From a virus (lineage: Duplodnaviria; Heunggongvirae; Uroviricota; Caudoviricetes): a DNA stretch of 16,129 nucleotides. Of the stretch, positions 3 through 15,426 are shown one piece after another; positions within the stretch are counted from its first letter, which is position 1; every line of letters starts with the position of its first letter. The notes below the pieces were generated by a model that had not been told where the DNA came from, did not search any database, and was given only the letters and a program-made list of their open reading frames with translations. Where the stretch lies: IMG/VR virus record IMGVR_UViG_2563367001_000002, one strand, 5' to 3'. A program made the translations under genes and the position numbers.

Positions 3-1913
3 GTGGAGGTGGACAAGGTCGCTGAAGCCTTCGGGAAGCTGACCACAGACCCGACGTCGGGGCTGACGGCGATGGCACGCCAGTTCCATAACGTGACGGC
101 GGAGCAGATTGCGTATGTTGCTCAGTTGCAGCGTTCCGGCGATGAAGCCGGGGCATTGCAGGCGGCGAACGAGGCCGCAACGAAAGGGTTTGATGACCAG
201 ACCCGCCGCCTGAAAGAGAACATGGGCACGCTGGAGACCTGGGCAGACAGGACTGCGCGGGCATTCAAATCCATGTGGGATGCGGTGCTGGATATTGGTC
301 GTCCTGATACCGCGCAGGAGATGCTGATTAAGGCAGAGGCTGCGTTTAAGAAAGCAGACGACATCTGGAATCTGCGCAAGGATGATTATTTTGTTAACGA
401 TGAAGCGCGGGCGCGTTACTGGGATGACCGTGAAAAGGCCCGTCTTGCGCTTGAAGCCGCCCGAAAGAAGGCTGAGCAGCAGACTCAACAGGACAAAAAT
501 GCGCAGCAGCAGAGCGATACCGAAGCGTCACGGCTGAAATATACCGAAGAGGCGCAGAAGGCTTACGAACGGCTGCAGACGCCGCTGGAGAAATATACCG
601 CCCGTCAGGAAGAACTGAACAAGGCACTGAAAGACGGGAAAATCCTGCAGGCGGATTACAACACGCTGATGGCGGCGGCGAAAAAGGATTATGAAGCGAC
701 GCTGAAAAAGCCGAAACAGTCCGGCGTGAAGGTGTCTGCGGGCGATCGTCAGGAAGACAGTGCTCATGCTGCTCTGCTGACGCTTCAGGCAGAACTCCGG
801 ACGCTGGAGAAGCATGCCGGAGCAAATGAGAAAATCAGCCAGCAGCGCCGGGATTTGTGGAAGGCGGAGAGTCAGTTCGCGGTACTGGAGGAGGCGGCGC
901 AACGTCGCCAGCTGTCTGCACAGGAGAAATCCCTGCTGGCGCATAAAGATGAGACGCTGGAGTACAAACGCCAGCTGGCTGCGCTTGGCGACAAGGTTAC
1001 GTATCAGGAGCGCCTGAACGCGCTGGCGCAGCAGGCGGATAAATTCGCACAGCAGCAACGGGCAAAACGGGCCGCCATTGATGCGAAAAGCCGGGGGCTG
1101 ACTGACCGGCAGGCAGAACGGGAAGCCACGGAACAGCGCCTGAAGGAACAGTATGGCGATAATCCGCTGGCGCTGAATAACGTCATGTCAGAGCAGAAAA
1201 AGACCTGGGCGGCTGAAGACCAGCTTCGCGGGAACTGGATGGCAGGCCTGAAGTCCGGCTGGAGTGAGTGGGAAGAGAGCGCCACGGACAGTATGTCGCA
1301 GGTAAAAAGTGCAGCCACGCAGACCTTTGATGGTATTGCACAGAATATGGCGGCGATGCTGACCGGCAGTGAGCAGAACTGGCGCAGCTTCACCCGTTCC
1401 GTGCTGTCCATGATGACAGAAATTCTGCTTAAGCAGGCAATGGTGGGGATTGTCGGGAGTATCGGCAGCGCCATTGGCGGGGCTGTTGGTGGCGGCGCAT
1501 CCGCGTCAGGCGGTACAGCCATTCAGGCCGCTGCGGCGAAATTCCATTTTGCAACCGGAGGATTTACGGGAACCGGCGGCAAATATGAGCCAGCGGGGAT
1601 TGTTCACCGTGGTGAGTTTGTCTTCACGAAGGAGGCAACCAGCCGGATTGGCGTGGGGAATCTTTACCGGCTGATGCGCGGCTATGCCACCGGCGGTTAT
1701 GTCGGTACACCGGGCAGCATGGCAGACAGCCGGTCGCAGGCGTCCGGGACGTTTGAGCAGAATAACCATGTGGTGATTAACAACGACGGCACGAACGGGC
1801 AGATAGGTCCGGCCGCTCTGAAGGCGGTGTATGACATGGCCCGCAAGGGTGCCCGTGATGAAATTCAGACACAGATGCGTGATGGTGGCCTGTTCTCCGG
1901 AGGTGGACGATGA
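3..1913 (+). CDS. H: Tail tape measure protein (lambda gpH-like), C-terminal 636 aa; 5' end outside window
   Basis: ORF open from the window edge. Charged coiled-coil-like region, then a Gly-rich segment and a C-terminus ending ...MRDGGLFSGGGR, consistent with my recollection of lambda gpH. Sits immediately upstream of M-L-K-I-J. Stop overlaps the M start (ATGA at 1910-1913). Confidence 0.9.
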   Translation: MEVDKVAEAFGKLTTDPTSGLTAMARQFHNVTAEQIAYVAQLQRSGDEAGALQAANEAATKGFDDQTRRLKENMGTLETWADRTARAFKSMWDAVLDIGRPDTAQEMLIKAEAAFKKADDIWNLRKDDYFVNDEARARYWDDREKARLALEAARKKAEQQTQQDKNAQQQSDTEASRLKYTEEAQKAYERLQTPLEKYTARQEELNKALKDGKILQADYNTLMAAAKKDYEATLKKPKQSGVKVSAGDRQEDSAHAALLTLQAELRTLEKHAGANEKISQQRRDLWKAESQFAVLEEAAQRRQLSAQEKSLLAHKDETLEYKRQLAALGDKVTYQERLNALAQQADKFAQQQRAKRAAIDAKSRGLTDRQAEREATEQRLKEQYGDNPLALNNVMSEQKKTWAAEDQLRGNWMAGLKSGWSEWEESATDSMSQVKSAATQTFDGIAQNMAAMLTGSEQNWRSFTRSVLSMMTEILLKQAMVGIVGSIGSAIGGAVGGGASASGGTAIQAAAAKFHFATGGFTGTGGKYEPAGIVHRGEFVFTKEATSRIGVGNLYRLMRGYATGGYVGTPGSMADSRSQASGTFEQNNHVVINNDGTNGQIGPAALKAVYDMARKGARDEIQTQMRDGGLFSGGGR

Positions 1914-2239
1914 AGACCTTCCGCTGGAAAGTGAAACCCGGTATGGATGTGACATCGGCTCCTTCCGTCAGGGAGGTGCGCTTTGGTGATGGCTATTCCC
2001 AGCGTGCGCCTGCCGGGCTGAACGCTGACCTGAAAACGTACAGCGTGACGCTGTCTGTCTCCCGTGAGGAGGCCACGGCGCTGGAGTCGTTTCTGGCTGA
2101 GCACGGGGGCTGGAAGGCCTTTCTGTGGACGCCGCCTTATGGTTACAGGCAGATAAAGGTGACCTGCGCAAAATGGTCGTCGCAGGTCAGTATGTTGCGT
2201 GTTGAGTTCAGCGCAGAGTTTAAACAGGTGGTGAACTGA
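1910..2239 (+). CDS. M: Minor tail protein M (lambda gpM-like), 109 aa
   Basis: 109-aa ORF, the same length as lambda M, beginning MKTFRWKVKPGMDV... Translationally coupled to H upstream (ATGA) and L downstream (TGATG). Conserved gene order. Confidence 0.9.
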   Translation: MKTFRWKVKPGMDVTSAPSVREVRFGDGYSQRAPAGLNADLKTYSVTLSVSREEATALESFLAEHGGWKAFLWTPPYGYRQIKVTCAKWSSQVSMLRVEFSAEFKQVVN

Positions 2240-2937
2240 TGCAGGATATCCGGCAGGAAACACTGAATGAATGCACCCGTGCGGAGCAGTCGGCCAGCGT
2301 GGTGCTCTGGGAAATCGATCTGACAGAGGTTGGTGGAGAACGTTATTTTTTCTGTAATGAGCAGAACGAAAAAGGTGAGCCGGTCACCTGGCAGGGGCGA
2401 CAGTATCAGCCGTATCCCATTCAGGGGAGCGGTTTTGAACTGAATGGCAAAGGCACCAGTACGCGCCCCACGCTGACGGTTTCTAACCTGTACGGTATGG
2501 TCACCGGGATGGCGGAAGATCTGCAGAGTCTGGTCGGCGGAACGGTGGTCCGGCGTAAGGTTTACGCCCGTTTTCTGGATGCGGTGAACTTCGTCAACGG
2601 AAACAGTTATGCCGATCCGGAGCAGGAGGTGATCAGCCGCTGGCGCATTGAGCAGTGCAGCGAACTGAGCGCGGTGAGTGCCTCCTTTGTACTGTCCACG
2701 CCGACGGAAACGGATGGCGCTGTTTTTCCGGGACGTATCATGCTGGCCAACACCTGCACCTGGACCTATCGCGGTGACGAGTGCGGTTATAGCGGTCCGG
2801 CTGTCGCGGATGAATATGACCAGCCAACGTCCGATATCACGAAGGATAAATGCAGCAAATGCCTGAGCGGTTGTAAGTTCCGCAATAACGTCGGCAACTT
2901 TGGCGGCTTCCTTTCCATTAACAAACTTTCGCAGTAA
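2239..2937 (+). CDS. L: Minor tail protein L (lambda gpL-like), 232 aa, Cys-rich C-terminus
   Basis: 232-aa ORF, the same length as lambda L. C-terminal cysteine cluster (CTWTYRGDECGY...CSKCLSGCKF) as in the gpL family. Conserved position. Confidence 0.9.
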   Translation: MQDIRQETLNECTRAEQSASVVLWEIDLTEVGGERYFFCNEQNEKGEPVTWQGRQYQPYPIQGSGFELNGKGTSTRPTLTVSNLYGMVTGMAEDLQSLVGGTVVRRKVYARFLDAVNFVNGNSYADPEQEVISRWRIEQCSELSAVSASFVLSTPTETDGAVFPGRIMLANTCTWTYRGDECGYSGPAVADEYDQPTSDITKDKCSKCLSGCKFRNNVGNFGGFLSINKLSQ

Positions 2938-2941
2938 TCCC

Positions 2942-3685
2942 ATGACACAGACAGAATCAGCGATTCTGGCGCACGCCCGGCGATGTGCGCCAGCGGAGTC
3001 GTGTGGCTTCGTGGTGAGAACGCCGAAGGGGGAAAGATATTTTCCCTGCGTGAATATCTCCGGTGAGCCGGAGGCGTATTTCCGGATGTCGCCGGAGGAC
3101 TGGCTGCGGGCAGAAATGCAGGGTGAGATTGTGGCGCTGGTCCACAGCCACCCCGGTGGTCTGCCCTGGCTGAGTGAGGCTGACAGGCGGCTGCAGGTGC
3201 AGAGCGATTTGCCGTGGTGGCTGGTCTGCCGGGGTGAGATTCATAAATTCCGCTGTGTGCCGCATCTTACCGGGCGGCGCTTTGAGCACGGGGTGACGGA
3301 CTGTTACACGCTGTTCCGGGATGCTTATCATCTGGCGGGGATTGAGATGCCGGATTTTCATCGCGGGGATGACTGGTGGCGTCACGGTCAGAATCTCTAT
3401 CTGGATAATCTGGAGGCCACAGGGCTGTATCAGGTGCCGTTGTCATCAGCACAACCGGGCGATGTGCTGCTGTGCTGTTTTGGTTCATCGGTGCCGAATC
3501 ATGCCGCCATTTACTGTGGTGATGGCGAGCTGCTGCACCATATTCCTGAACAACTGAGCAAACGAGAGAGGTATACCGACAAATGGCAGCGACGCACACA
3601 CTCCCTCTGGCGTCACCGGGCATGGCGCGCATCTGCCTTTACGGGGATTTACAACGATTTGGCCGCCGCATCGACCTTCGTGTGA
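2942..3685 (+). CDS. K: Tail tip assembly protein K (lambda gpK-like; MPN/JAMM-type and NlpC/P60-type domains)
   Basis: ORF in frame 2900..3685. I chose the ATG at 2942 (MTQTESAILAHARR...) because that N-terminus is the conserved one for this family. The lambda reference annotation would start at the internal ATG at 3086 (MSPEDW...), and the ORF track offers 2900, which overlaps L. HSHPGG is a JAMM-like motif; a Cys/His-containing C-terminal half is NlpC/P60-like. The 3' end overlaps I by about 100 nt, as in lambda. Confidence 0.85.
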   Translation: MTQTESAILAHARRCAPAESCGFVVRTPKGERYFPCVNISGEPEAYFRMSPEDWLRAEMQGEIVALVHSHPGGLPWLSEADRRLQVQSDLPWWLVCRGEIHKFRCVPHLTGRRFEHGVTDCYTLFRDAYHLAGIEMPDFHRGDDWWRHGQNLYLDNLEATGLYQVPLSSAQPGDVLLCCFGSSVPNHAAIYCGDGELLHHIPEQLSKRERYTDKWQRRTHSLWRHRAWRASAFTGIYNDLAAASTFV

Positions 3686-4254
3686 AAACGGGGGCTGAAG
3701 CCATCCGGGCGCTGGCCACACAGCTCCCGGCGTTTCGTCAGAAACTGAGCGACGGCTGGTATCAGGTACGGATTGCCGGGCGGGACGTCAGCACGTCCGG
3801 ATTGACGGCGCAGTTACATGAGGTTCTGCCTGACGGCGCTGTGATTCATATTGTTCCCAGAGTCGCCGGGGCCAAGTCAGGGGGCGTATTCCAGATTGTT
3901 CTGGGGGCTACCGCCATTGCCGGATCATTCTTTACTGCCGGAGCCACCCTTGCAGCATGGGGGGCAGCCATTGGGGCCGGTGGTATGACCGGTATCCTGT
4001 TTTCTCTCGGTGCCAGTATGGTACTTGGTGGTGTGGCGCAGATGCTGGCACCGAAAGCTAGAACTCCCCGTACACAGACAACGGATAACGGTAAGCAGAA
4101 CACCTATTTCTCCTCACTGGATAACATGGTTGCCCAGGGCAATGTTCTGCCTGTTCTGTACGGTGAAATGCGCGTGGGGTCGCGGGTGGCTTCTCAGGAG
4201 ATCAGCACGGCAGACGAGGGGGACGGTGGTCAGGTTGTGGTGATTGGTCGTTGA
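3583..4254 (+). CDS. I: Tail tip assembly protein I (lambda gpI-like), 223 aa
   Basis: 223-aa ORF, the same length as lambda I, beginning MAATHTLPLASPGMARICLYGDLQRFGRR... with a Gly/Ala-rich hydrophobic C-terminal half. Overlaps the K 3' end in another frame. Confidence 0.9.
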   Translation: MAATHTLPLASPGMARICLYGDLQRFGRRIDLRVKTGAEAIRALATQLPAFRQKLSDGWYQVRIAGRDVSTSGLTAQLHEVLPDGAVIHIVPRVAGAKSGGVFQIVLGATAIAGSFFTAGATLAAWGAAIGAGGMTGILFSLGASMVLGGVAQMLAPKARTPRTQTTDNGKQNTYFSSLDNMVAQGNVLPVLYGEMRVGSRVASQEISTADEGDGGQVVVIGR

Positions 4255-4274
4255 TGAAAAACGTTTTATGTGAA

Positions 4275-4300
4275 ACCGCCTCAGGGCGGTTTTGTCGTTT
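4275..4300 (+). terminator. Short I-J intergenic hairpin with U-rich tail (possible attenuator)
   Basis: ACCGCC-tcag-GGCGGT (6-bp stem, 4-nt loop) followed by TTTTGTCGTTT, sitting between the I stop (4254) and the J start (4315). Weak stem, so low confidence. Confidence 0.3.
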
Positions 4301-4314
4301 CTGGAGCGTGAGGA

Positions 4315-7300
4315 ATGGGTAAAGGCAGCAGTAAGGGGCATACCCCGCGCGAAGCGAAGGACAACCTGAAATCATCCCAGATGCTGAGCGTGATAGACGC
4401 CATCAGTGAAGGGCCGATTGAAGGTCCGGTGGACGGATTAAAAAGTGTGCTGCTGAACAGTACGCCAGTGCTGGACAGTGAGGGGAATACCAATATCTCC
4501 GGTGTCACGGTGGTTTTCCGGGCAGGTGAGCAGGAGCAGACACCGCCGGAGGGATTTGAATCCTCCGGCTCCGAGACGGTGCTGGGTACGGAAGTGAAGT
4601 ACGACACGCCGATTACCCGGACCATCACGTCTGCAAACATCGACCGTCTGCGCTTTACCTTCGGTGTGCAGGCACTGGTGGAAACCACCTCAAAGGGGGA
4701 CAGGAATCCATCGGAAGTCCGCCTGCTGGTTCAGATACAACGTAACGGTGGCTGGGTGACGGAAAAAGACATCACCATTAAGGGTAAAACCACCTCGCAG
4801 TATCTGGCCTCAGTGGTGGTGGATAACCTGCCGCCGCGCCCGTTTAATATCCGGATGCGCAGGATGACGCCGGACAGCACCACAGACCAGCTGCAGAACA
4901 AAACGCTCTGGTCGTCATACACCGAAATCATCGATGTGAAACAGTGCTACCCGAACACGGCACTGGTCGGCGTGCAGGTGGACTCGGAGCAGTTCGGCAG
5001 CCAGCAGGTGAGCCGTAATTATCATCTGCGCGGGCGTATTCTGCAGGTGCCGTCGAACTATAACCCGCAGACGCGGCAATACAGCGGTATCTGGGACGGG
5101 ACGTTTAAACCGGCATACAGCAACAACATGGCCTGGTGTCTGTGGGATATGCTGACCCATCCGCGCTACGGCATGGGGAAGCGTCTCGGTGCGGCGGATG
5201 TGGACAAATGGGCGCTGTATGTCATCGGCCAGAATTGCGACCAGTCGGTGCCGGATGGCTTTGGTGGCACGGAGCCGCGCATCACCTGTAATGCCTGGCT
5301 GACCACGCAGCGCAAGGCGTGGGATGTGCTCAGTGATTTCTGCTCGGCGATGCGCTGTATGCCGGTATGGAACGGGCAGACGCTGACGTTCGTGCAGGAC
5401 CGGCCATCGGATAAGGTGTGGACCTATAACCGTAGTAATGTGGTGATGCCGGATGATGGCGCGCCGTTCCGCTACAGCTTCAGCGCCCTGAAGGACCGTC
5501 ATAATGCCGTTGAGGTGAACTGGATTGACCCGAATAACGGCTGGGAGACGGCGACAGAGCTTGTGGAGGACACGCAGGCCATTGCCCGTTACGGTCGTAA
5601 CGTCACGAAGATGGATGCCTTTGGCTGTACCAGCCGGGGGCAGGCACACCGCGCCGGGCTGTGGCTGATTAAAACAGAACTGCTGGAAACGCAGACCGTG
5701 GATTTCAGCGTCGGCGCAGAAGGGCTTCGCCATGTACCGGGTGATGTTATTGAAATCTGCGATGATGACTATGCGGGGATCAGCATTGGCGGGCGCGTGC
5801 TGGCGGTGAACAGCCAGACCCGGACGCTGACGCTCGACCGTGAAATCACGCTGCCATCCTCCGGTACCACGCTGATAAGCCTGGTTGACGGGCAGGGGAG
5901 TCCGGTCAGCGTGGAGGTTCAGTCCGTCACCGACGGCGTGAAGGTGAAAGTGAGTCGGGTTCCTGACGGCGTTGCCGGATACAGCGTGTGGGGGCTGAAG
6001 CTGCCGACGCTGCGCCAGCGCCTGTTCCGCTGTGTGAGTATCCGTGAGAACGACGACGGCACGTATGCCATCACCGCCGTGCAGCATGTACCGGAAAAAG
6101 AGGCCATCGTGGATAACGGGGCGTACTTTGACGGCGACCAGAGCGGCACGGTGAATGGTGTCACGCCGCCAGCGGTGCAGCACCTGACCGCCGAAGTCAC
6201 CGCAGACAGCGGGGAATATCAGGTGCTGGCGCGCTGGGACACGCCGAAGGTGGTGAAGGGCGTGAGCTTCCTGCTCCGTCTGACCGTAACAGCGGATGAC
6301 GGCAGTGAGCGGCTGGTCAGCACGGCCCGGACGACGGAAACCACATACCGCTTCAGGCAACTGGCGCTGGGGAACTACAGGCTGACAGTCCGGGCGGTAA
6401 ATGCGTGGGGGCAGCAGGGCGATCCGGCGTCGGTATCGTTCCGGATTGCCGCACCGGCAGCACCGTCGAGGATTGAGCTGACGCCGGGCTATTTTCAGAT
6501 AACCGCCACGCCGCATCTTGCCGTTTATGACCCGACGGTACAGTTTGAGTTCTGGTTCTCGGAAAAGCGGATTACCGATATCAGGCAGGTTGAAACCACA
6601 GCCCGCTATCTTGGTACGGCGCTGTACTGGATAGCCGCCAGTATCAATATCAAACCGGGCCATGATTATTACTTTTATATCCGCAGTGTGAACACCGTTG
6701 GCAAATCGGCATTCGTGGAGGCCGTCGGTCGGGCGAGCGATGATGCGGAAGGTTACCTGGATTTTTTCAAAGGCAAGATAACCGAATCCCATCTCGGCAA
6801 GGAGCTGCTGGAAAAAGTCGAGCTGACGGAGGATAACGCCAGCAGACTGGAGGAGTTTTCGAAAGAGTGGAAGGACGCCAACGATAAGTGGAATGCCATG
6901 TGGGGCGTCAAAATTGAGCAGACCAAAGACGGCAAACATTATGTCGCGGGGCTTGGCCTCAGCATGGAGGACACGGAGGAAGGCAAACTGAGCCAGTTCC
7001 TGGTTGCCGCTAACCGTATCGCATTTATTGACCCGGCAAACGGGAATGAAACGCCGATGTTTGTGGCGCAGGGCAATCAGATATTCATGAACGAAGTGTT
7101 CCTGAAATATCTGACGGCTCCCACCATTACCAGCGGCGGTAATCCTCCGGCATTTTCCCTGACACCGGACGGGCGGCTGACGGCGAAAAATGCCGATATC
7201 AGCGGTAACGTGAATGCGAACTCCGGGACGCTCAACAACGTCACGATTAACGAGAACTGCCGGGTTCTGGGAAAACTGTCCGCGAACCAGATTGAAGGCG

Positions 7301-7710
7301 ATCTCGTTAAAACAGTGGGCAAAGCTTTCCCCCGTGACTCCCGAGCACCGGAGCGGTGGCCATCAGGGACCATTACCGTCAGGGTTTATGACGATCAGCC
7401 GTTTGACCGGCAAATTGTTATTCCGGCGGTGGCATTCAGTGGCGCTAAGCATGAGAGAGAGCATACTGATATTTACTCCTCATGCCGTCTGATAGTGCGG
7501 AAAAACGGTGCTGAAATTTATAACCGTACCGCGCTGGATAATACGCTGATTTACAGTGGCGTTATTGATATGCCTGCCGGTCACGGTCACATGACACTGG
7601 AGTTTTCGGTGTCAGCATGGCTGGTAAATGGCTGGTATCCCACAGCAAGTATCAGCGATTTGCTGGTTGTTGTGATGAAGAAAGCCACTGCAGGCATCAC
7701 GATTAGCTGA
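4315..7710 (+). CDS. J: Host specificity protein J (tail tip / central fibre, lambda gpJ-like), 1131 aa
   Basis: 1131-aa ORF (lambda J is 1132 aa) beginning [20 protein letters not shown]... Long collinear similarity to lambda J as I recall it. The last ~150 aa differ from lambda (receptor-binding region). SD-like GGAG upstream. Confidence 0.92.
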
Positions 7711-7729
7711 ATTTTATAACCCAGATACG

Positions 7730-7753
7730 GGCACCAGAAATGGTGCCTTTTTT
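7730..7753 (+). terminator. Rho-independent terminator downstream of J
   Basis: GGCACCA-gaaa-TGGTGCC (7-bp perfect stem, GNRA-type tetraloop) immediately followed by TTTTTT; 20 nt after the J stop. Confidence 0.8.
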
Positions 7754-7777
7754 ATTGCAGAAAAGCGAGAGGTAATT

Positions 7778-8377
7778 ATGCGTAAATTATGTGCTGTTAT
7801 TCTGTCCGCAGTAGTCTGGCTGGTTGCCGCTGGTACGCCAGCGAGCGCAGCAGAGCATCAGTCCACACTAAGCGCCGGGTATCTTCAGACCCATACTGAT
7901 ATGCCAGGCAGTGATGACCTGAAGGGCATTAACGTGAAATACCGTTATGAATTTACGGACACGCTGGGGCTGGTGACGTCATTCAGTTATGCCAATGCCA
8001 AAGATGAGCAAAGAACGCATTACAGCGATACCCGCTGGCATGAAGATTCAGTGCGTAACCGCTGGTTCAGCATGATGGCGGGGCCATCTGTACGCGTGAA
8101 TGAATGGTTCAGTGCTTATGCGATGGCAGGTGTGGCTTACAGCCGTGTTTCGACGTTCTCCGGGGATTATCTCCGCGTAACTGACAACAAGGGGAAAACG
8201 CACGATGTGCTGACCGGAAGTGATGACGATCGCCACAGCAACACGTCTCTGGCGTGGGGAGCTGGCGTGCAGTTTAACCCGACCGAATCCGTGGCCATTG
8301 ATATTGCTTATGAAGGCTCCGGCAGTGGCGACTGGCGCACTGACGGTTTCATCGTGGGTGTCGGTTATAAGTTCTGA
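7778..8377 (+). CDS. lom: Lom outer membrane protein (Ail/Lom/PagC family beta-barrel), 199 aa
   Basis: Signal peptide (MRKLCAVILSAVVWLVAAGTPASA), alternating aromatic beta-strand pattern, C-terminal ...GVGYKF. Position right after J as in lambda. Own SD (GAGAGG) and flanking terminators. Confidence 0.9.
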   Translation: MRKLCAVILSAVVWLVAAGTPASAAEHQSTLSAGYLQTHTDMPGSDDLKGINVKYRYEFTDTLGLVTSFSYANAKDEQRTHYSDTRWHEDSVRNRWFSMMAGPSVRVNEWFSAYAMAGVAYSRVSTFSGDYLRVTDNKGKTHDVLTGSDDDRHSNTSLAWGAGVQFNPTESVAIDIAYEGSGSGDWRTDGFIVGVGYKF

Positions 8378-8431: not shown

Positions 8432-8441
8432 TGGAGTGGAT

Positions 8442-10820
8442 ATGGCAGCAGTAAAAATCTCAGGTGTGCTGAAAGATGGTGCGGGAAAACCAATACAGAA
8501 CTGCACTATTCAACTGAAGGCAAAGCGTAACAGCACCACGGTACTGGTGAACACGGTGGCTTCTGAAAATCCGGATGAAGCCGGACGTTACAGCATGGAT
8601 GTTGAGTATGGCCAGTACAGCGTCACCCTGCTGGTTGAAGGTTTTCCGCCTTCACATGCCGGGACCATTACCGTCTATGAAGGCTCCAGACCAGGTACGC
8701 TGAATGATTTTCTCGGTGCCATGACGGAAGATGATGTCATGCCGGAGGCATTGCGTCGTTTTGAGGAAATGGTGGAAGAAGCGGCACGCAACGCTGAAGC
8801 CGCCTCTCAGAGCGCAGCGGCGGCAAAGAAATCCGAAACTGCAGCGGCATCATCGAAGAACGCGGCGAAAACCTCAGAAACGAATGCAGCTAATAGTGCA
8901 CAGGCGGCAGCGACCTCAAAGACTGCATCGGCAAACTCCGCGACAGCAGCCAAAAAATCAGAAACCAACGCGAAAAATAGCGAGACAGCCGCAAAGACGA
9001 GCGAAACCAACGCAAAGTCCAGCCAGACGGCAGCGAAAACCAGCGAAACGAATGCCAAAGCCAGTGAAACTGCGGCAAAAAACAGCCAGGTTGCAGCAGC
9101 CCAAATCGAGAGCGCGGCAGCCGGTTCTGCGACTTCAGCAGCTGGATCAGCAACTGCTGCGGCTAACAGCCAGAAAGCTGCGAAGACGAGTGAAACTAAC
9201 GCAAAGTTCAGCCAGACGGCAGCGAAGACCAGCGAAACGAATGCCAAAGCCAGCGAAACTGCGGCGAAAAACAGTCAGGATGCAGCAGCCCAAAGCGAGA
9301 GTGCTGCAGCTGGTTCTGCAAGCGCGGCGGCTGCTTCTGCCACTGCATCAGCCAACAGTCAAAAAGCAGCAAAAACCAGTGAAACCAATGCAAAGACAAG
9401 CGAGACTGCAGCGGCGAACTCGGCGAAAGCATCGGCAGCAAGCCAGACAGCAGCTAAAGCAAGTGAAGACGCAGCCAGAGAGTATGCAAGTCAGGCAGCA
9501 GAGCCGTATAAATATGTCTTACAGCCGCTGCCTGATGTGTGGATACCATTTAACGATTCGCTGGATATGATTACGGGCTTTTCGCCATCATATAAAAAAA
9601 TTGTTATTGGTGACGATGAAATAACGATGCCTGGCGACAAGATTGTTAAGTTTAAACGTGCATCGAAAGCAACCTATATTAACAAATCTGGTGTGCTGAC
9701 AGAGGCTGCCATTGACGAGCCACGATTTGAACGTGATGGCCTGCTTATTGAGGGGCAAAGAACAAACTACATGCTCAATTCGGAAAGCCCTGCAAGTTGG
9801 GGGCGATCATCAAATATGGATGTGCCCGAAACAGGGACGGATAATTTTGGTTTTACCTATGGAAAGTTTGTCTGCAACGATTCTCTGATTGGGCAAACCT
9901 CAGCCATTAATATGGCATCAATTGCTGCAACAAAGTCAGTTGATGTCTCAGGCGATAATAAACACGTGACAACCTCATGTCGTTTTAAAACAGAACTGCA
10001 GGTAAGGTTGCGTATCCGGTTTGATAAATATGACGGTAGCACAACAACTTTTCTTGGTGATGCGTATATTGATACACAAACGCTTGAAATTAATATGACA
10101 GGCGGTGCTGCCTCAAGAATTACAGCGAGAGTCAGAAAGGACGAAGCTACCGGATGGATTTTTGCAGAGGCAACAATTCAGGCAATTGATGGGGAGTTAA
10201 AAATAGGCTCTCAGATACAGTATTCTCCTGGGCAGGGTGGGGCAACAGTATCTGGTGACTATATTTATCTTGCCACCCCACAAGTAGAGAATGGGCCGTG
10301 TGTATCATCATTTATTATTTCAGGAGGCAGCGCAACGACAAGAGCCAGTGATTTGGTTAGTATCCCCACCAGAAATAATCTTTATAAGTTACCATTTACT
10401 TTTTTACTTGAGATTCATAAAAACTGGGATATTGCACCAAACGCCGCACCCCGCGTGTGGGATATAGCAGCAGCCAATACCGGGCAATCAGCAATTGCAG
10501 CAATCAACAGAGGTAGTGGTAAGTTATATATGAGTCTGTCAAACCCTTCAGGCTCGTATGTTAATAGCGCAGCGACAGATGTATTTGCAGAGAAAACCAC
10601 ATTTGGATGTATTGCAAAAGCTGATGGTCACTTTCATGTGGTGACAAATGGTAAAGCGGTTAATGAAGTTTATTGTGAATATAATGGCGTGACCGCTGAT
10701 AAAAATATCCGATTTGGAGGGCAGACGAATACTGGAGAACGACATCTGTTTGGCCATATTCGCAATTTCCGCATATGGCATAAAGAATTAAATGACAGGC
10801 AATTAAAAGAGGTCGTATGA
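8442..10820 (+). CDS. stf: Side tail fibre protein (Stf-like N-terminus, Ala/Ser/Thr-rich repeat shaft, LamG/ConA-like C-terminal domain)
   Basis: N-terminus MAVKISGVLKDGAGKPIQNCTIQLKAKRNSTT... matches the lambda Stf N-terminus as I recall it. I chose the ATG at 8442 with GGAG 5-8 nt upstream; the ORF track's 8436 is a GTG two codons earlier. The central part has KTSETNAK-type repeats. The C-terminus ends ...IRFGGQTNTGERHLFGHIRNFRIWHKELNDRQLKEVV, the typical end of a LamG (concanavalin-like lectin) domain. Confidence 0.8.
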   Translation: MAAVKISGVLKDGAGKPIQNCTIQLKAKRNSTTVLVNTVASENPDEAGRYSMDVEYGQYSVTLLVEGFPPSHAGTITVYEGSRPGTLNDFLGAMTEDDVMPEALRRFEEMVEEAARNAEAASQSAAAAKKSETAAASSKNAAKTSETNAANSAQAAATSKTASANSATAAKKSETNAKNSETAAKTSETNAKSSQTAAKTSETNAKASETAAKNSQVAAAQIESAAAGSATSAAGSATAAANSQKAAKTSETNAKFSQTAAKTSETNAKASETAAKNSQDAAAQSESAAAGSASAAAASATASANSQKAAKTSETNAKTSETAAANSAKASAASQTAAKASEDAAREYASQAAEPYKYVLQPLPDVWIPFNDSLDMITGFSPSYKKIVIGDDEITMPGDKIVKFKRASKATYINKSGVLTEAAIDEPRFERDGLLIEGQRTNYMLNSESPASWGRSSNMDVPETGTDNFGFTYGKFVCNDSLIGQTSAINMASIAATKSVDVSGDNKHVTTSCRFKTELQVRLRIRFDKYDGSTTTFLGDAYIDTQTLEINMTGGAASRITARVRKDEATGWIFAEATIQAIDGELKIGSQIQYSPGQGGATVSGDYIYLATPQVENGPCVSSFIISGGSATTRASDLVSIPTRNNLYKLPFTFLLEIHKNWDIAPNAAPRVWDIAAANTGQSAIAAINRGSGKLYMSLSNPSGSYVNSAATDVFAEKTTFGCIAKADGHFHVVTNGKAVNEVYCEYNGVTADKNIRFGGQTNTGERHLFGHIRNFRIWHKELNDRQLKEVV
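8991..9413 (+). repeat. In-frame 189-bp (63-aa) tandem repeat inside stf, about 2.2 copies, roughly 90% identical
   Basis: Unit A 8991-9179 (gcaaagacgagcgaaaccaacgcaaag...) recurs as unit B 9180-9368 (gcgaagacgagtgaaactaacgcaaag...), with a partial third copy to about 9413. Protein-level repeat ...AKTSETNAK(S/F)SQTAAKTSETNAKASETAAKNSQ...ANSQKA. Confidence 0.85.
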
Positions 10821-11095
10821 AAGATTTAACTTTGAAGTTTCATGACAAACTGCAGTTTAAGGCCTTCCTGTCATCTCTTGGCTGGGCGGAAGATGAAGAC
10901 CTCCAGAATAAACTGTTAGTTGATGAAATTGGTTTCACCTACACAGAAACAGGGGTAACAGAAGAGGGAGAACCTGTCTGTATCCGGAATGATGGTTATT
11001 TTGTCAACATTCGCATTCTTGATGACTTGTTTGATGTTTCTGTATTCTCTGATTATGTCGTGGAGCTGGAAACACCGCTTCGGGAATGGAGCTGA
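10817..11095 (+). CDS. Hypothetical acidic protein, 92 aa, translationally coupled to stf
   Basis: ATG overlaps the stf stop (ATGA, 10817-10820). Good SD (AAGAGG) 6 nt upstream. No TM segment, net acidic. I recognise no family. About 41% GC. Confidence 0.55.
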   Translation: MKDLTLKFHDKLQFKAFLSSLGWAEDEDLQNKLLVDEIGFTYTETGVTEEGEPVCIRNDGYFVNIRILDDLFDVSVFSDYVVELETPLREWS

Positions 11096-11107
11096 AAGGA
11101 GGAAATA

Positions 11108-11554: not shown

Positions 11555-11604
11555 CCGCAGCACGTCTTAAGCAAGAACGTGCTGCGGTTGGATGCTATTT
11601 TTTC
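11555..11604. terminator. Hairpin between the convergent Tfa remnant and methyltransferase gene (candidate bidirectional terminator)
   Basis: Perfect 11-bp stem CCGCAGCACGT / ACGTGCTGCGG (11555-11565 and 11577-11587) with an 11-nt loop; a T-run (TATTTTTT) lies 9 nt downstream on the + strand. No U-tract on the minus-strand side. Confidence 0.45.
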
Positions 11605-12263
11605 CCTGAAGCGGAAAACATTACTACAGTACCTTGAACCTTGGTTTTAACATTCTCGAAATGCTCTGAGAGTATATGTGTTAAGCCTTCTTCGGAATCT
11701 TTTGTGTTTGAAAAGATGCCTTTCTGATTGTAAATGCGCATCAGTTTTTGACCGAAGCTATTGTGCACAACGCCGTCACCAAGAATTGTGGCTCCGTATA
11801 GAGTTCCATCGTCAGTTAAGGCCTGCGCCGCATTGCGTATTACACAGCTTTTTGTAGATATATTTCCAGGCAGGCAGTGAAGAAGGTAAAACATGGAAAT
11901 GGAATCAAATTGACCATGTAACGCCGCGGGATAAGGATCAAAAACATCATGGCTAATTTTATGTTTAATTTTTGATTCCCCAGCCCTTGTAGATGCCGCG
12001 TTCAGGCTAGCTTCGTTCAAATCCATTAAAGATATCAGACTACTCTCAGGTACGTGAGTAAGGTAAAACCCAGTTCCAACACCAATATCCAGATGGTTGT
12101 TACCTAAATGTTCCAGAAAGTGTGGAAGAAGGTGTTCCTTTGTAGGACATCCCCATGCAAGCCGATTTGATACTCCCAAAACCCACCAGTCATAAAGCTT
12201 TAGGGTAAGTGGTGTGTAAATTTTAGCCCCATCATCTGTGTTTTTTTTCATTAATTTCACCAT
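11595..12263 (-). CDS. ybcY: Class I SAM-dependent methyltransferase (ybcY-like), 222 aa
   Basis: Motif I LDIGVGTG (GxGxG), acidic residue in LMDLNE about 20 aa later, motif II-like FDSISMFYLLHCLP. Sits between two Tfa remnants exactly like ybcY in the K-12 DLP12 tfaD-ybcY-tfaX arrangement; the symbol is assigned from that context. A second in-frame ATG at codon 5 (CDS 11595..12251) has a better SD (GGTGA). Low GC. Confidence 0.7.
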   Translation of the reverse strand: MVKLMKKNTDDGAKIYTPLTLKLYDWWVLGVSNRLAWGCPTKEHLLPHFLEHLGNNHLDIGVGTGFYLTHVPESSLISLMDLNEASLNAASTRAGESKIKHKISHDVFDPYPAALHGQFDSISMFYLLHCLPGNISTKSCVIRNAAQALTDDGTLYGATILGDGVVHNSFGQKLMRIYNQKGIFSNTKDSEEGLTHILSEHFENVKTKVQGTVVMFSASGKK

Positions 12264-12319
12264 GTTATAGTTTTATTTGTGAATTAAATCAATTATGGCG
12301 ATGAATTACAAGGGGTTAA

Positions 12320-12618
12320 ATGCTGCCGCAGCATAGCGATATTGAAATAGCCTGGTATGCTTCGATACAGCAGGAGCCGAATGGCTGGAAGACCGTCACC
12401 ACACAGTTCTACATCCAGGAATTCAGTGAGTATATTGCGCCACTGCAGGATGCTGGGAAATCGCAACGGAGGAAGAAAGATCGTTGCTGGAGGCATGGAA
12501 TAAATATCGGGTATTGTTGAATCGTGTTGATACATCAGTAGCTCTGGGTATGAAGCTGTTTGTAACTCATGTTACAGTAACAACCATTACTATCTCGAAG
12601 GTGCAAAATGTATATTGA
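12320..12618 (+). pseudogene. tfa: Tail fibre assembly protein pseudogene (tfaX-like), frameshifted
   Basis: One frame gives ...[10 protein letters not shown] and, after a shift of frame near 12455, ...[30 protein letters not shown]... These are both parts of the conserved Tfa C-terminal domain, split across frames. The C-terminus diverges from the Tfa consensus after VDTS. Confidence 0.6.
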
Positions 12619-12746
12619 TTTGATATTTTATAAATTTACTTCGAATCTGGCACGTCAACTTTTGATTAAAGTAATATCAGTTTTCGGCGAAAAAAGGACC
12701 GTGTATATGAGACGATTTCATACAAGAATAACAAAAATATGAATAT

Positions 12747-12780
12747 GCTCCCAATGCAATATATGTTTTGCATTGGGAGC
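12747..12780 (-). terminator. Rho-independent terminator for the minus-strand peptidase gene
   Basis: Perfect 12-bp stem GCTCCCAATGCA / TGCATTGGGAGC with a 10-nt loop, 22 nt downstream of the peptidase stop. On the minus-strand transcript it is followed by AUAUUCAUAUUUUUGUUAUU. Confidence 0.65.
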
Positions 12781-12801
12781 AAATAGCGGAATATTTTGAA
12801 A

Positions 12802-14286
12802 TTATTGTATTTCTGCTTCAGAATTTCCTGGGCAGTATATATTTTCTATTTTTTGTGGAGTGATCAGGTGATGTACAACTGCTTTATCTACACATAAATT
12901 AACTCCGGTGAGAGCTAATGTATGCCCATCACCATTTATTGTTAGTAACGGGCTGGAAAATTTCTCTGCCATCTTACGGGCATTAATCCAGGGCGTTGTT
13001 GGGTCGTATTTGTGTGCTACAAACAGTAAACCAGAGGGCAGAACAGTATTTTTCAGGCGAGTTTTGTTCAGGTCGCTATGTATTGGCCATAATTCACAAA
13101 AATCAGGTGAATCGGAACGTCCATTGTCAAAGTTAATGGCCGGGAAGGCATTCGCAAGAGCGTCTTTTCGGGATTTTCGCTCTTCTGGTGTTAATTGCTC
13201 ATCCCCCTGATCTACACAGAGGATTACCCCCGAAGCATCGCTTGACTCTTCTGAGGCTATCGGAGCACTGAGCGCAGTTTCAATTTCATTACTGACAATC
13301 CCCTGAGAGAACTGGCGTATGGCAGTTGCAAGGGTTGGCCATGATGAACGCCATAGCAGAAGGTCTGTTGTTAATGATATGAGTTCATCTGAAGATATAT
13401 TTTCTCCCTTACTGTCTAATAAAGGTTTGTGATGTAATTTTGATAATAGCTCATGGAACTGAGTTATTGCCTTATCTCTGTCTGAAGAAAGCGGGCAACT
13501 TTTTGTACGCGCACACCAGGATGCAAAGCGATCAAACGTTTCCTGATAACTCTGTGCCTGTTTGAGTTGCCATGTGAAGTTGTCCTCCAGGTCATCGATA
13601 TCGACGACTCCATCAAGAACGATAGATCTTACGTTGTAGGGAAAACGTTCTGCATATAAGGCTGCAATTTGAGTTCCATACGAATACGCCACGGCTGTCA
13701 GTTGTTTATCCCCCAAGGCTTGCCTAATACGATCAATATCGTATACAGCCTCGTTAGAGCCGATATGGCGAATGACTTCGGCTCCGGTATTATGGATACA
13801 GGCATTAATTTTATTTAATACTTGTTGCTTTTCGGTTATGTTTTCCTGAGTCTCTGTATCTGATTGCCGGCAGTTTATTGTCGGAGTGGACTGTCCGACG
13901 CCTCGAGGATCAAATCCAATAATATCCCATGACTCACGAAGATTTGTGACTGGCCAGTCAAAGTTAATATAAGGATTTATGCCTGGTAACCCGGGACCAC
14001 CACTTATTATCAGGATACTTCCTTTATGCTTGCTTTTTGCCGGCAATTTTGTCAACGCTAGTTTGACTTGTGATTTTTTTTCATAAGAAGCATCTCCGCC
14101 TGTGTCTGTATATTTTAATGGAACAGACAAATAACCACATAGTAAGTCAGGAGACGGTTTTTCCTCACCAAACCAGTGGTTGAATTGACTGGCCATACAG
14201 GATTGCCACTGTATCTGCTGGGCAGATACGGTTACTGGTAGAAGTAACGTTAAAACAACTTTGAAATGAGTAATTATTTTTCGCAT
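12802..14286 (-). CDS. Signal-peptide-bearing (exported) alpha/beta-hydrolase peptidase, S33 / TAP-like (tripeptidyl or prolyl aminopeptidase family), 494 aa
   Basis: N-terminal signal peptide (MRKIITHFKVVLTLLLPVTVSA|QQ). GGPG oxyanion motif (ILIISGGPGLPG), GFDPRGVGQS, nucleophile elbow AYSYGT (GxSYG-type), C-terminal Asp/His region (INGDGHTLAL). Low GC. Confidence 0.75.
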   Translation of the reverse strand: MRKIITHFKVVLTLLLPVTVSAQQIQWQSCMASQFNHWFGEEKPSPDLLCGYLSVPLKYTDTGGDASYEKKSQVKLALTKLPAKSKHKGSILIISGGPGLPGINPYINFDWPVTNLRESWDIIGFDPRGVGQSTPTINCRQSDTETQENITEKQQVLNKINACIHNTGAEVIRHIGSNEAVYDIDRIRQALGDKQLTAVAYSYGTQIAALYAERFPYNVRSIVLDGVVDIDDLEDNFTWQLKQAQSYQETFDRFASWCARTKSCPLSSDRDKAITQFHELLSKLHHKPLLDSKGENISSDELISLTTDLLLWRSSWPTLATAIRQFSQGIVSNEIETALSAPIASEESSDASGVILCVDQGDEQLTPEERKSRKDALANAFPAINFDNGRSDSPDFCELWPIHSDLNKTRLKNTVLPSGLLFVAHKYDPTTPWINARKMAEKFSSPLLTINGDGHTLALTGVNLCVDKAVVHHLITPQKIENIYCPGNSEAEIQ

Positions 14287-14424
14287 TGTGTCTCTGAATA
14301 TCGGAATAAAGATAAGATTTGAATATATTGAGGTCTTGTGTTGCGGTAAGAGATTACACGTTATGACATAGGTTAAATGCTTACAAAATTAGTGGATATT
14401 GTCTACTTGTAACTGTAAACAAAT

Positions 14425-14453
14425 TCCCCGGGGTTATACAATACCACCGGGGA
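14425..14453 (-). terminator. Candidate terminator for ompT
   Basis: TCCCCGG ... CCGGGGA inverted repeat (7-bp stem, 15-nt loop) about 20 nt downstream of the ompT stop, followed on the minus-strand transcript by AUUUGUUUAC. Confidence 0.5.
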
Positions 14454-14472
14454 GAAAATCTGGTTAACTTCG

Positions 14473-15426
14473 TTAAAAGGTGTACTTAAGACCAGCAGTA
14501 GTGATGAAGTTATAGTTTTCTATGCCTGCACCATTTTTGCTGTAGTCTGAAGTGTTATCATTGTGATCATAAAGTGAAGTATTACCTTTTTTATTCGTAA
14601 CCCGATTCCATGCGCCTTCAACATAAACTTTTGCGTTAGGTGTTACGTAATAACCTGCATTGACTGCAACAGAATAGTAATTTTGGTCTTTGACTTTACT
14701 GCGATAAGTGATTCTTTTTCCTGGGTCATAGTGCTCATCGTTATCAGATGCTTCCACCCAGCCGCTGTATTTAAATGTGCCACCTAGCTCAAAATCTTCA
14801 TAACGATAACTTCCAGTCAAGCCAATGTAGGGCATTTTAAAACGTTGTTTGTAGCCGATTGCTCTTTCTCCATTCGGGAAGGAGCCGATATCATCTCTGA
14901 ATCCCTCCTCAGAACTGTAGATATAGGAACCACCTCTGGCTGTAAAGCTATAACGGCTTTCCTGATATCCGGCCATGAGTCCCAGGCGGTAATTGGGTTC
15001 GTTGAGGAGCCAGCCTTTGATATTCAGATCAAATTCGTTGGCATAATTGAGTTGTGTATCAGGGTGCCTACTTTCATCTGTCCAGGTTCCGGGGTTACTG
15101 GAATCCATCCAGTCCTGATCGACCATATTGCCACCTCGGCTGCCGAGAGTAGTCCAGCCCGCAGCCCCAATAGATATCTGGGGCATCAAATCCCAATTAA
15201 TTGCACCTTTAATAATTGCAGCGTTATTGAATTTCCAGTCAAGTTGACTGACTTTTCGGCCTCCTTCTTCGGCTAGATAAACACGCTCTTTTGTTTTTCC
15301 GCTCAGAGTTCCAAGACTAATGTCCGCATTTATGTTGTCAGGAGTAAACGATAAAGTCTCGGTAGAAGCAAAAGAGCTGATCGCAATAGGGGTTGTCAGG
15401 ACTATTCCCAGAAGTTTCGCCCGCAT
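14473..15426 (-). CDS. ompT: Outer membrane protease OmpT (omptin, peptidase family A26), 317 aa
   Basis: 317-aa ORF with signal peptide MRAKLLGIVLTTPIAISSFA and C-terminal ...TTAGLKYTF. Essentially collinear with E. coli K-12 OmpT as I recall it. GGAG SD 8 nt upstream of the ATG. Confidence 0.93.
   Translation of the reverse strand: MRAKLLGIVLTTPIAISSFASTETLSFTPDNINADISLGTLSGKTKERVYLAEEGGRKVSQLDWKFNNAAIIKGAINWDLMPQISIGAAGWTTLGSRGGNMVDQDWMDSSNPGTWTDESRHPDTQLNYANEFDLNIKGWLLNEPNYRLGLMAGYQESRYSFTARGGSYIYSSEEGFRDDIGSFPNGERAIGYKQRFKMPYIGLTGSYRYEDFELGGTFKYSGWVEASDNDEHYDPGKRITYRSKVKDQNYYSVAVNAGYYVTPNAKVYVEGAWNRVTNKKGNTSLYDHNDNTSDYSKNGAGIENYNFITTAGLKYTF

Follow-up and report, generated by a model that had tools for sequence, protein, structure and literature searches.

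The stretch of phage DNA analysed here (16,129 nucleotides of a Caudoviricetes genome, record IMGVR_UViG_2563367001_000002, hereafter the window) comes from a lambdoid prophage of E. coli and carries a tail tip gene, J, that is composite: a lambda-like body is followed by a tip of the 2G7b/VT1-Sakai type, whose receptor-binding domain (RBD) would very likely act on OmpC instead of LamB. According to the ORF list of the window and its translation, J is a single intact ORF, and protein alignment gives an overall identity of 90% to lambda J (KT232076). Its Pfam domains, each above cut-off, follow one another in the order FNIII-A_GpJ, Phage-tail_3, Ig_J, Ig_J_second, Phage_Tail_Tip and Ig_GpJ_C, which is the arrangement of a lambda gpJ-type protein (hub, FNIII/Ig, tail-tip fibre and C-terminal Ig-like RBD). 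The coordinates of J, of its parts and of the neighbouring features are collected in Table 1.

Table 1. Features of the J region, in window coordinates; the domain names used for the J body are those of the lambda structure paper (PMC11101478).
Feature	Position	Strand	Basis or remark
Gene J, tail tip / central tail fibre (host specificity) protein	4315..7710	+	ORF list and translation; 1131 aa
Lambda-like J body: hub, FNIII domains, alpha-helical shaft, proximal beta-prism fibre	4315..7094	+	~96% nt identity to lambda
Approximate recombination junction, lambda-like body / VT1-Sakai/2G7b-type distal module	7078..7094	+	difference map
Exchanged distal module, J aa ~927-1131: distal beta-prism and receptor-binding domain	7095..7710	+	100% nt identity to 2G7b
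Region flagged by the initial annotation, strong aa divergence from lambda	7255..7710	+	aa 981-1131
Ig-like C-terminal receptor-binding domain, Pfam PF12421 Ig_GpJ_C	7315..7707	+	aa 1001-1131; E = 6e-37
Predicted receptor-side loop 1, aa ~1004-1017	7324..7365	+	between model strands 39-44 and 59-67
Predicted receptor-side loop 2, aa 1047-1052	7453..7470	+	between model strands 85-87 and 94-104
Predicted receptor-side loop 4, aa 1104-1115	7624..7659	+	between model strands 132-144 and 157-163
Terminator-like hairpin and T-run, directly 3′ of the J stop codon	7729..7756	+	
lom (Ail/Lom outer-membrane beta-barrel)	7778..8377	+	Pfam Ail_Lom, E = 6e-127
Stf side tail fibre, 794 aa	8436..10820	+	Pfam phage_tail_N at N-terminus; ConA-like lectin match, aa 668-789

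Mosaic Structure of Gene J

The initial annotation had described J as mostly collinear with lambda J, except for a C-terminus of about 150 aa that departs from it while keeping the same overall layout. Protein alignment bears this description out. Identity to lambda J amounts to 97.1% in aa 1-975, to 42.7% from aa 976 onwards and to 41.4% in aa 981-1131; the last value lies far below the identity of more than 90% across the C-terminus that the annotation had named as speaking against its reading, and that we took as the mark of a lambda-type LamB-binding RBD (aa ~980-1132, including loops L1-L4). The motifs of the common layout are indeed retained: PFDRQIV is the same in both proteins, and DMPAGxG is present in each, as VIDMPAGHG in J and as IVDMPAGRG in lambda. 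Over the same aa 981-1131, identity to J of VT1-Sakai, an O157 prophage, reaches 98.7%.

In the nucleotide sequence the change is abrupt. In steps of 100 nt, the identity to lambda is 0.87-1.00 as far as about position 7215 of the window and 0.55-0.63 beyond it, the megablast match to lambda ends at J nucleotide 2945 (window 7259), and blastn returns one lambda segment of ~96% identity (window 1316-7247), with no lambda similarity found by plain blastn from 7248 to 8249. The start at 7255, as originally proposed, opens the region of strong amino acid divergence, but at the nucleotide level the mosaic junction lies ~160 nt upstream. There, the last difference from VT1-Sakai before the shared stretch is found at 7092, and dense differences from lambda begin at 7095 (aa ~927). 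Between 7093 and 7259 the window and VT1-Sakai have zero nucleotide differences, and from 7093 to 7744 they have 14; from aa ~927 to the stop codon the two J proteins differ by just 2 residues; on the other hand, the hub and shaft segments of VT1-Sakai J are only 40-68% identical to the window in nucleotides. The match to phage 2G7b (LR595866, Nesevirus nv2G7b), whose J is also 1131 aa long, is complete in the distal part, with 0 mismatches in the 616 nt from 7095 to 7710, as compared to 96.0% nucleotide identity in the rest of J (4315-7094).

Such a pattern is not expected by chance, because identity steps from ~96% to ~55% within tens of bases and the distal part is 100% identical to 2G7b. 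These sequence comparisons indicate that J is a recombinant that arose by a module swap and not by gradual drift. Divergence by gradual point mutation was considered separately and is ruled out by the step change, since the distal 616 nt equal those of 2G7b while the body stands at 96%.

Module swapping in J is already known in lambda-like phages, and the present gene is an ordinary case of it. Residues 960-1132 of J were shown in 2018 to be modular and were termed the specificity region (PMC6646904), and the J of 2G7b has been published as having a lambda-like body and divergent last 150 aa (bioRxiv 10.1101/2020.06.25.171868). The modular specificity region, the RBD type and the receptor class have thus all been described before, and J brings no new biology.

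OmpC as the Probable Receptor

The name 1A2 designates a natural gpJ C-terminus that Brödel et al. (Nature 2024, PMC11338833) grafted, in recoded synthetic form, onto lambda gpJ, with the joint at residue 964. In lambda particles, the resulting chimera changes the receptor from LamB to OmpC. Delivery into a ΔlamB ΔompC K-12 strain takes place only if a suitable OmpC is supplied; the OmpC of EDL933 (G17) works, that of K-12 fails, and delivery exceeds 75% for 20 of the 23 OmpC groups (PMC11338833). We compared J with 1A2 by a frameshift-tolerant alignment. In the ~168 aa after residue 964, the only clean differences are R1048K and G1106N; ~5 further apparent differences lie beside errors in the 1A2 sequence, which was machine-extracted from a PDF with bases dropped or added, and were taken as artefacts. 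The same two differences are found between J and VT1-Sakai, whose J has K1048 and N1106 just as 1A2 does, and the 1A2 C-terminus is of the VT1-Sakai/O157 prophage type. The C-terminal module of 1A2 has the same length as that of J and, these two residues aside, the same loops; its fusion point to lambda gpJ, residue 964, lies beyond the natural junction of J, near aa 927. By sequence, the specificity region of J is nearly identical to that of the 1A2/VT1-Sakai type.

From this near-identity we infer that the window variant (R1048, G1106) behaves like 1A2, that is, independently of LamB and in dependence on OmpC. The suggestion, made at the outset, of a different receptor or different binding properties finds support here, the C-terminus being almost that of the OmpC-dependent 1A2. 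In the mechanism that we propose, the J trimer would attach through the loops of its RBD to the outward-facing side of trimeric OmpC and not to the maltoporin LamB. By analogy with lambda on LamB and A8 on OmpC, binding would spread the bottom of the RBD trimer, and this spreading would twist the beta-prism fibre, flip the helical shaft and open the tail tip, leading to DNA ejection. The conformational mechanism of J opening has been described (PMC11101478), and the trigger in the window protein is presumably the same as in lambda and A8. Since the RBD loops would dock on OmpC and trigger ejection, the RBD would set which OmpC alleles, and hence which E. coli strains, the phage can infect, apart from maltose regulation. 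For the annotation of the prophage, the predicted receptor would become an OmpC of non-K-12 type in place of LamB. RBDs of this type already serve to direct DNA delivery vectors built on lambda towards gut E. coli and pathogenic E. coli strains.

Fold and Predicted Receptor-Side Loops of the RBD

The Ig_GpJ_C match to the C-terminus scores 127 bits (cut-off, 26). The AF2 model of the RBD has a mean pLDDT of 80.2, most blocks of 10 residues in its core reaching 87-97, and Foldseek aligns it to 9wca, 9wcb, 8xck and 8xcj (E = 1e-19 to 4e-17, TM 0.73-0.74). Going by their PDB titles, 9wca is the closed A8 gpJ and 9wcb the open form with EDL933 OmpC (G17); 8xck and 8xcj are lambda gpJ closed and open with LamB, respectively. 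The model is consistent with the PF12421 fold, an Ig-like beta-sandwich like that of the solved gpJ RBDs. The facing side of loop 1 was assigned in the model from strand alternation and is therefore a prediction.

The specificity hot spots of lambda J include residue 1012, an indel at 1048-1049 and residue 1107, the last of which is required for the shift of lambda from LamB to OmpF (PMC6646904). In the clade of RBDs to which the window belongs, loop 1 is variable at aa 1008-1014 and aligns with hot spot 1012. Loop 2, which aligns with the lambda indel, is the most variable stretch of the clade, where as many as 8 different residues are seen at aa 1049; it holds R1048 (codon 7456-7458), replaced by K in 1A2 and VT1-Sakai (nucleotide difference at 7457). 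Loop 4 holds G1106 (codon 7630-7632), replaced by N in the same two proteins (nucleotide differences at 7630 and 7631), and this residue aligns with lambda D1107. Both differences from 1A2 are thus placed in predicted loops, at positions aligned with lambda hot spots.

This location leaves room for a second reading, namely that J binds OmpC as 1A2 does while R1048 and G1106 alter the spectrum of alleles, with K-12-type OmpC gained or other alleles lost and, in the extreme, a switch to OmpF. We consider it quite unlikely. The two substitutions do fall at the most variable positions of the clade (G, N, D, K and A are all seen at aa 1106, and up to 8 states at 1047-1053), and they align with lambda 1048 and with 1107, needed for the shift to OmpF; yet the exchange of R for K is conservative, and at both positions the window has the residue most often seen in representatives of the clade (R1048, G1106). 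Phage 2G7b, which has the same RBD, was isolated on one or the other of two indicator strains, MG1655 hsdR and E. coli C (bioRxiv 10.1101/2020.06.25.171868), and no receptor is reported for it; but all phage records that match at ≥90% and give a propagation host name E. coli C or ECOR13 and not K-12, which fits a 1A2-like behaviour. It is likewise doubtful that the replacements K1048R (loop 2) and N1106G (loop 4) switch OmpC allele specificity, for example by opening K-12-type OmpC. If they did, the residues G, N, D, K and A seen at position 1106 among E. coli prophages would make up a natural series that pairs phages with OmpC alleles.

OmpC dependence of the 1A2 kind, which we prefer, also has to be set against an RBD that diverged in sequence yet still uses LamB. 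The fold, PFDRQIV and DMPAGxG are conserved, and porins are structurally similar trimers, all of which would agree with retention of LamB. However, a chimera that differs at two residues works in a ΔlamB host and needs OmpC; moreover, all four loop regions of lambda are changed in J, with a one-residue gap at lambda 1106/1107. Retention of LamB is therefore highly improbable.

Related RBDs and Their Prevalence

The RBD of lambda gpJ belongs to the same Ig_GpJ_C family and shares the Ig-like fold and its four loops on the receptor side, but binds LamB; the body of lambda J is shared with the window up to aa ~926 (~96% in nucleotides). The top structural match to the window RBD is A8 gpJ (TM 0.73), of the same family and fold, which uses OmpC and whose RBD is the same as that of phage PhiR30_1 J. 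Identity to window J over aa 981-1131 is 58%, and the C-terminal strand is almost as in J; on the other hand, loop 2 of the A8 RBD is extended by an insertion of 5-6 residues, its loop 1 is shorter, and A8 recognises K-12 OmpC, which 1A2 does not. The window RBD therefore shares the fold of the A8/PhiR30_1 type, but not its sequence type or loop lengths. Among solved OmpC complexes, that of A8 (9wcb) is the closest to a 1A2-type RBD.

Phage 434, for which OmpC is given as the receptor (Hantke 1978, as reported in a citing paper), likewise combines a lambda-like J body with a PF12421-type RBD. Its RBD is an independent type, only 39% identical to that of J over aa 981-1131, with loops 1 and 2 longer and loop 4 shorter. 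OmpC is also the receptor of the EHEC siphophage phi330, a possible carrier of the RBD type of the window that we did not count as evidence here. For the ECOR-derived PhiR phages that share the RBD of the window, the literature found covers SNIPE/ManYZ and does not give the outer-membrane receptor. No FhuA or BtuB users were recognised among the matches listed (best 40 of 243 in tblastn).

The use of the lambda tip as the norm, implicit in the initial annotation, proved misleading. The tip type of the window is common in E. coli, being present in 3372 of 5426 complete genomes, while the tip type of lambda itself occurs in 98 of them. Given these counts, lambda is the unusual one, and its LamB tip is the exception among lambdoid prophages of E. 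coli.

Tail-Gene Context

The placement of J fits the tail gene order H-M-L-K-I-J-lom-stf, as judged from the window ORFs, Pfam and the annotation of co-linear records. That the prophage is cryptic and J a decaying remnant devoid of current receptor function is very hard to credit: the prophage adjoins ompT, related genomes carry fragments of tail-fibre-assembly and integrase genes in the region, and the window covers just the tail end of the prophage, but J is full-length, its distal 616 nt are those of the plaque-forming 2G7b, and its neighbours H, M, L, K, I, lom and stf are likewise uninterrupted ORFs.

The gene lom belongs to the same block as the J tip, lacking blastn similarity to lambda and being contiguous with 2G7b. 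Indeed, 2G7b and the window remain co-linear across lom and the greater part of stf, as far as position 10464. Beyond this point the Stf tip region of the window (10465-11096) derives from a different lineage; 2G7b differs there and possesses an extra tail-fibre-domain gene of ~1 kb. Stf is a second host-range determinant of the same tail as J. Finally, the hairpin that follows the J stop codon consists of an 8-bp stem with 5 G-C pairs and is followed by TTTTTATT; in phage 434, a terminator is annotated at the equivalent position.

Divergence of the J receptor-binding tip from lambda

The window covers the terminal part of a lambdoid prophage within an E. coli chromosome, and its genes are listed in the following table.

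Gene content of the window (positions in nt)
Feature	Position	Strand	Remarks
H			tape-measure gene, partial
M, L, K, I			in this order after H
J	4315-7710	+	intact ORF, 1131 codons
lom	7778-8377	+	199 aa
stf	8436-10820	+	side tail fibre gene
Two small ORFs			3′ of stf, before the minus-strand genes
SAM-dependent methyltransferase	11595-12263	minus	
Alpha/beta hydrolase	12802-14286	minus	494 aa, TAP-like C-terminus
ompT	14473-15426	minus	

The J protein displays the full gpJ Pfam architecture, whose last domain, PF12421 (aa 1001-1131, E = 6e-37), is labelled in Pfam 'Ig_GpJ_C, C-terminal receptor binding domain' (RBD). Compared with lambda J (KT232076) by BLASTP, it shows 90% overall identity and one single-residue gap; identity is 97.1% over aa 1-975 versus 41.4% over aa 981-1131. 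At the DNA level, identity to lambda per 100 nt is 0.87-1.00 until approximately position 7215 and 0.55-0.63 thereafter. The lambda megablast match stops at 7259, and blastn detects no similarity to lambda across 7248-8249, a block spanning the J stop, the terminator between the two genes and the greater part of lom. The divergent C-terminus that the initial annotation had placed at 7255-7710 is thus confirmed, with identity to lambda well under 90%, and so is the shared layout: PFDRQIV is kept in both proteins, and VIDMPAGHG in the window J corresponds to IVDMPAGRG in lambda.

Two minor features accompany J. An antisense ORF of 674 aa (4915-6939, minus strand) lies within the gene; it carries no annotation in the related records examined and is most likely a by-product of J codon composition rather than a gene. 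In addition, the K-to-J stretch (3583-4315, gene I region) is 30 nt longer than in strain AST216, from which a J start at 4285 would be expected; this length difference points to an indel that preserves the frame, in gene I or close to it.

Recombination within J

The junction was mapped by aligning the distal J of the window, the O157 prophage VT1-Sakai, lambda, PhiR30_1 and 434. The window and VT1-Sakai show zero differences between 7093 and 7259, while differences from lambda are dense from 7095; this places the junction at approximately nt 7078-7094 (J aa ~927), within the beta-prism fibre and ~160 nt upstream of position 7255. From 7095 to the J stop the window is 100% identical to Escherichia phage 2G7b (0 mismatches in 616 nt), versus 96.0% in the remaining J, which rules out drift. 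As judged from these alignments, the distal divergence of J is recombinational module shuffling.

VT1-Sakai J has in common with the window J the RBD (98.7% aa identity) and also part of the second FNIII domain, while its hub and helical-shaft segments are 40-68% identical and contain insertions of 63 and 21 nt, located in the helical-shaft region. Over window positions 5755-7094 this J, annotated as mutation-truncated, is a patchwork in which 6475-6774 is 93-100% identical and the flanks 40-68%, showing that J recombines at several internal points and not at the RBD boundary alone.

Identity of the tip and its probable receptor

The 456-nt segment encoding aa 981-1131 is 100% identical to 2G7b and 95-97% identical to J of VT1-Sakai, many long-tailed Stx1a/Stx2a phages, PPompW prophages and several ECOR-derived PhiR phages. 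Of the PDB sequences, 'A8 gpJ 713' (9wca/9wcb) matches it best, better than lambda gpJ. A8 and 1A2 are the two OmpC-dependent chimeras made by Brödel et al. (Nature 2024, PMC11338833), in which lambda gpJ is joined at residue 964 to a gpJ C-terminus of natural origin. The A8 RBD is exactly that of PhiR30_1 and shares 58% identity with the window over aa 981-1131; the RBDs of 434 and lambda are separate types (39% and 41%, respectively, over the same residues).

The 1A2 gene text of the PMC11338833 supplement, machine-read with dropped and added bases, was aligned to the window protein using a frameshift-tolerant dynamic programme. Clean differences beyond residue 964 are limited to R1048K and G1106N; ~5 further mismatches, directly beside extraction errors, were treated as artefacts. 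The VT1-Sakai RBD differs from the window at exactly residues 1048 and 1106, likewise with K and N, and 1A2 can therefore be assigned to the VT1-Sakai/O157 type. At the sequence level, the RBD of the window and 2G7b is a two-residue variant of this type.

DNA delivery by 1A2 into MG1655 delta-lamB delta-ompC requires OmpC in trans, EDL933 OmpC being functional and K-12 OmpC not; 1A2 gives >75% GFP-positive cells for 20 of 23 OmpC groups, failing with G1, G2 and G40 (PMC11338833 and its source data). For the sister type A8, direct RBD-OmpC binding is structurally established, as stated in the title of PDB 9wcb ('Open state of A8 gpJ 713 central tail fiber with OmpC G17 from E. coli EDL933'). 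The near-identity to the 1A2 C-terminus supports the earlier proposal of a different receptor or different binding properties and, by analogy, OmpC is the putative ligand of the exact J variant of the window. Where phage records with this RBD type state a host, it is E. coli C or ECOR13 and in no case K-12, in weak agreement with a 1A2-like failure on K-12 OmpC.

Receptor-side loops and tail opening

An AlphaFold2 model of J aa 960-1131, built on a 40-sequence alignment, has a mean pLDDT of 80.2, the beta-sandwich core averaging 87-97 in most of its 10-residue blocks. Foldseek against the PDB returns strong matches only to 9wca, 9wcb, 8xck and 8xcj (E 1e-19 to 4e-17, TM 0.73-0.74). R1048 and G1106 fall within inter-strand loops (model residues 88-93 and 145-156) which, from the up-and-down strand order, are predicted to face the same domain end as the loops at aa ~1004-1017 and ~1074-1076. 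These four predicted loops correspond to the LamB-inserting loops L1-L4 of lambda (PMC11101478) and coincide with the four hot spots where indels and variation concentrate among natural J homologues (lambda residues 1012, 1048-1049, 1077-1078 and 1107; PMC6646904). Among 28 representatives of the window RBD clade, variation is highest at aa 1047-1053, 1090 and 1092, and 1103-1107, with G, N, D, K or A at aa 1106. Since R1048 and G1106 occupy specificity hot spots, the OmpC-allele range of the window J could differ from that of 1A2.

In the lambda-LamB structures, the bottom loops of the RBD trimer enter the porin trimer and the RBD bottom spreads; new hydrogen bonds then make the beta-prism more compact and turn it, the helical shaft flips over, the FNIII strings come apart and the tip of the tail is opened (PMC11101478). 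The closed and open A8 structures, the latter with OmpC, indicate a two-state behaviour as in lambda. The upstream machinery of the window J is entirely shared with lambda at 96-97% identity, and on this basis the same tail-opening trigger would operate, with OmpC as ligand.

Prevalence and earlier descriptions

By megablast, the 456-nt segment has matches in 3372 of 5426 complete E. coli genomes (median 2 copies), with 205 records at ≥99% identity, versus 98 genomes for the equivalent lambda segment, all at ≥99%, with laboratory lysogens such as BL21(DE3) among them. Of the 243 phage records with a PF12421-type RBD, 57 carry the window type at ≥90% protein identity. These counts make the window tip the prevalent type and the lambda tip a rarity.

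The same observation on J has already been made for 2G7b, whose RBD is identical to that of the window (bioRxiv 10.1101/2020.06.25.171868); J residues 960-1132 were shown to be a 'specificity region' that recombines independently and is subject to diversifying selection (Maddamsetti et al., 2018, PMC6646904), and the receptor class of this RBD type was established in 2024 (PMC11338833). Both the kind of feature and the RBD type are thus known, and the sole, trivial novelty is the occurrence of the R1048/G1106 variant in this prophage.

Neighbouring modules

Downstream of J, similarity to lambda (83%) returns only at 8250, and lom is of the 2G7b/434/VT1-Sakai type, not the lambda type. The stf tip and the next small ORF (10817-11095) derive from another lineage than in the closest relatives: region 10465-11096 has no match in 2G7b or AST216 and is identical to phage Perceval at 100%, to ev207 and mEp460_4F5 at 99.9% and to phage 21 at 98.8%. 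The window lacks the ~1 kb gene for a 'tail fiber domain-containing protein' that 2G7b and AST216 carry. The tail to which this J belongs has thus had a second host-range module exchanged, at the stf tip. Comparing the window with related stf genes also revealed an internal direct repeat, formed by overlapping 249-nt segments (8976-9224 and 9165-9413; 189-nt offset) that are 82% identical, an arrangement that points to a fibre-shaft unit repeated in tandem.

Finally, the three minus-strand genes (11595-15426) represent cargo at the prophage end. Related genomes carry gene fragments (tail-fibre-assembly, dinI and integrase) between and beyond these genes, indicating that ompT lies inside or beside stacked prophage remnants.
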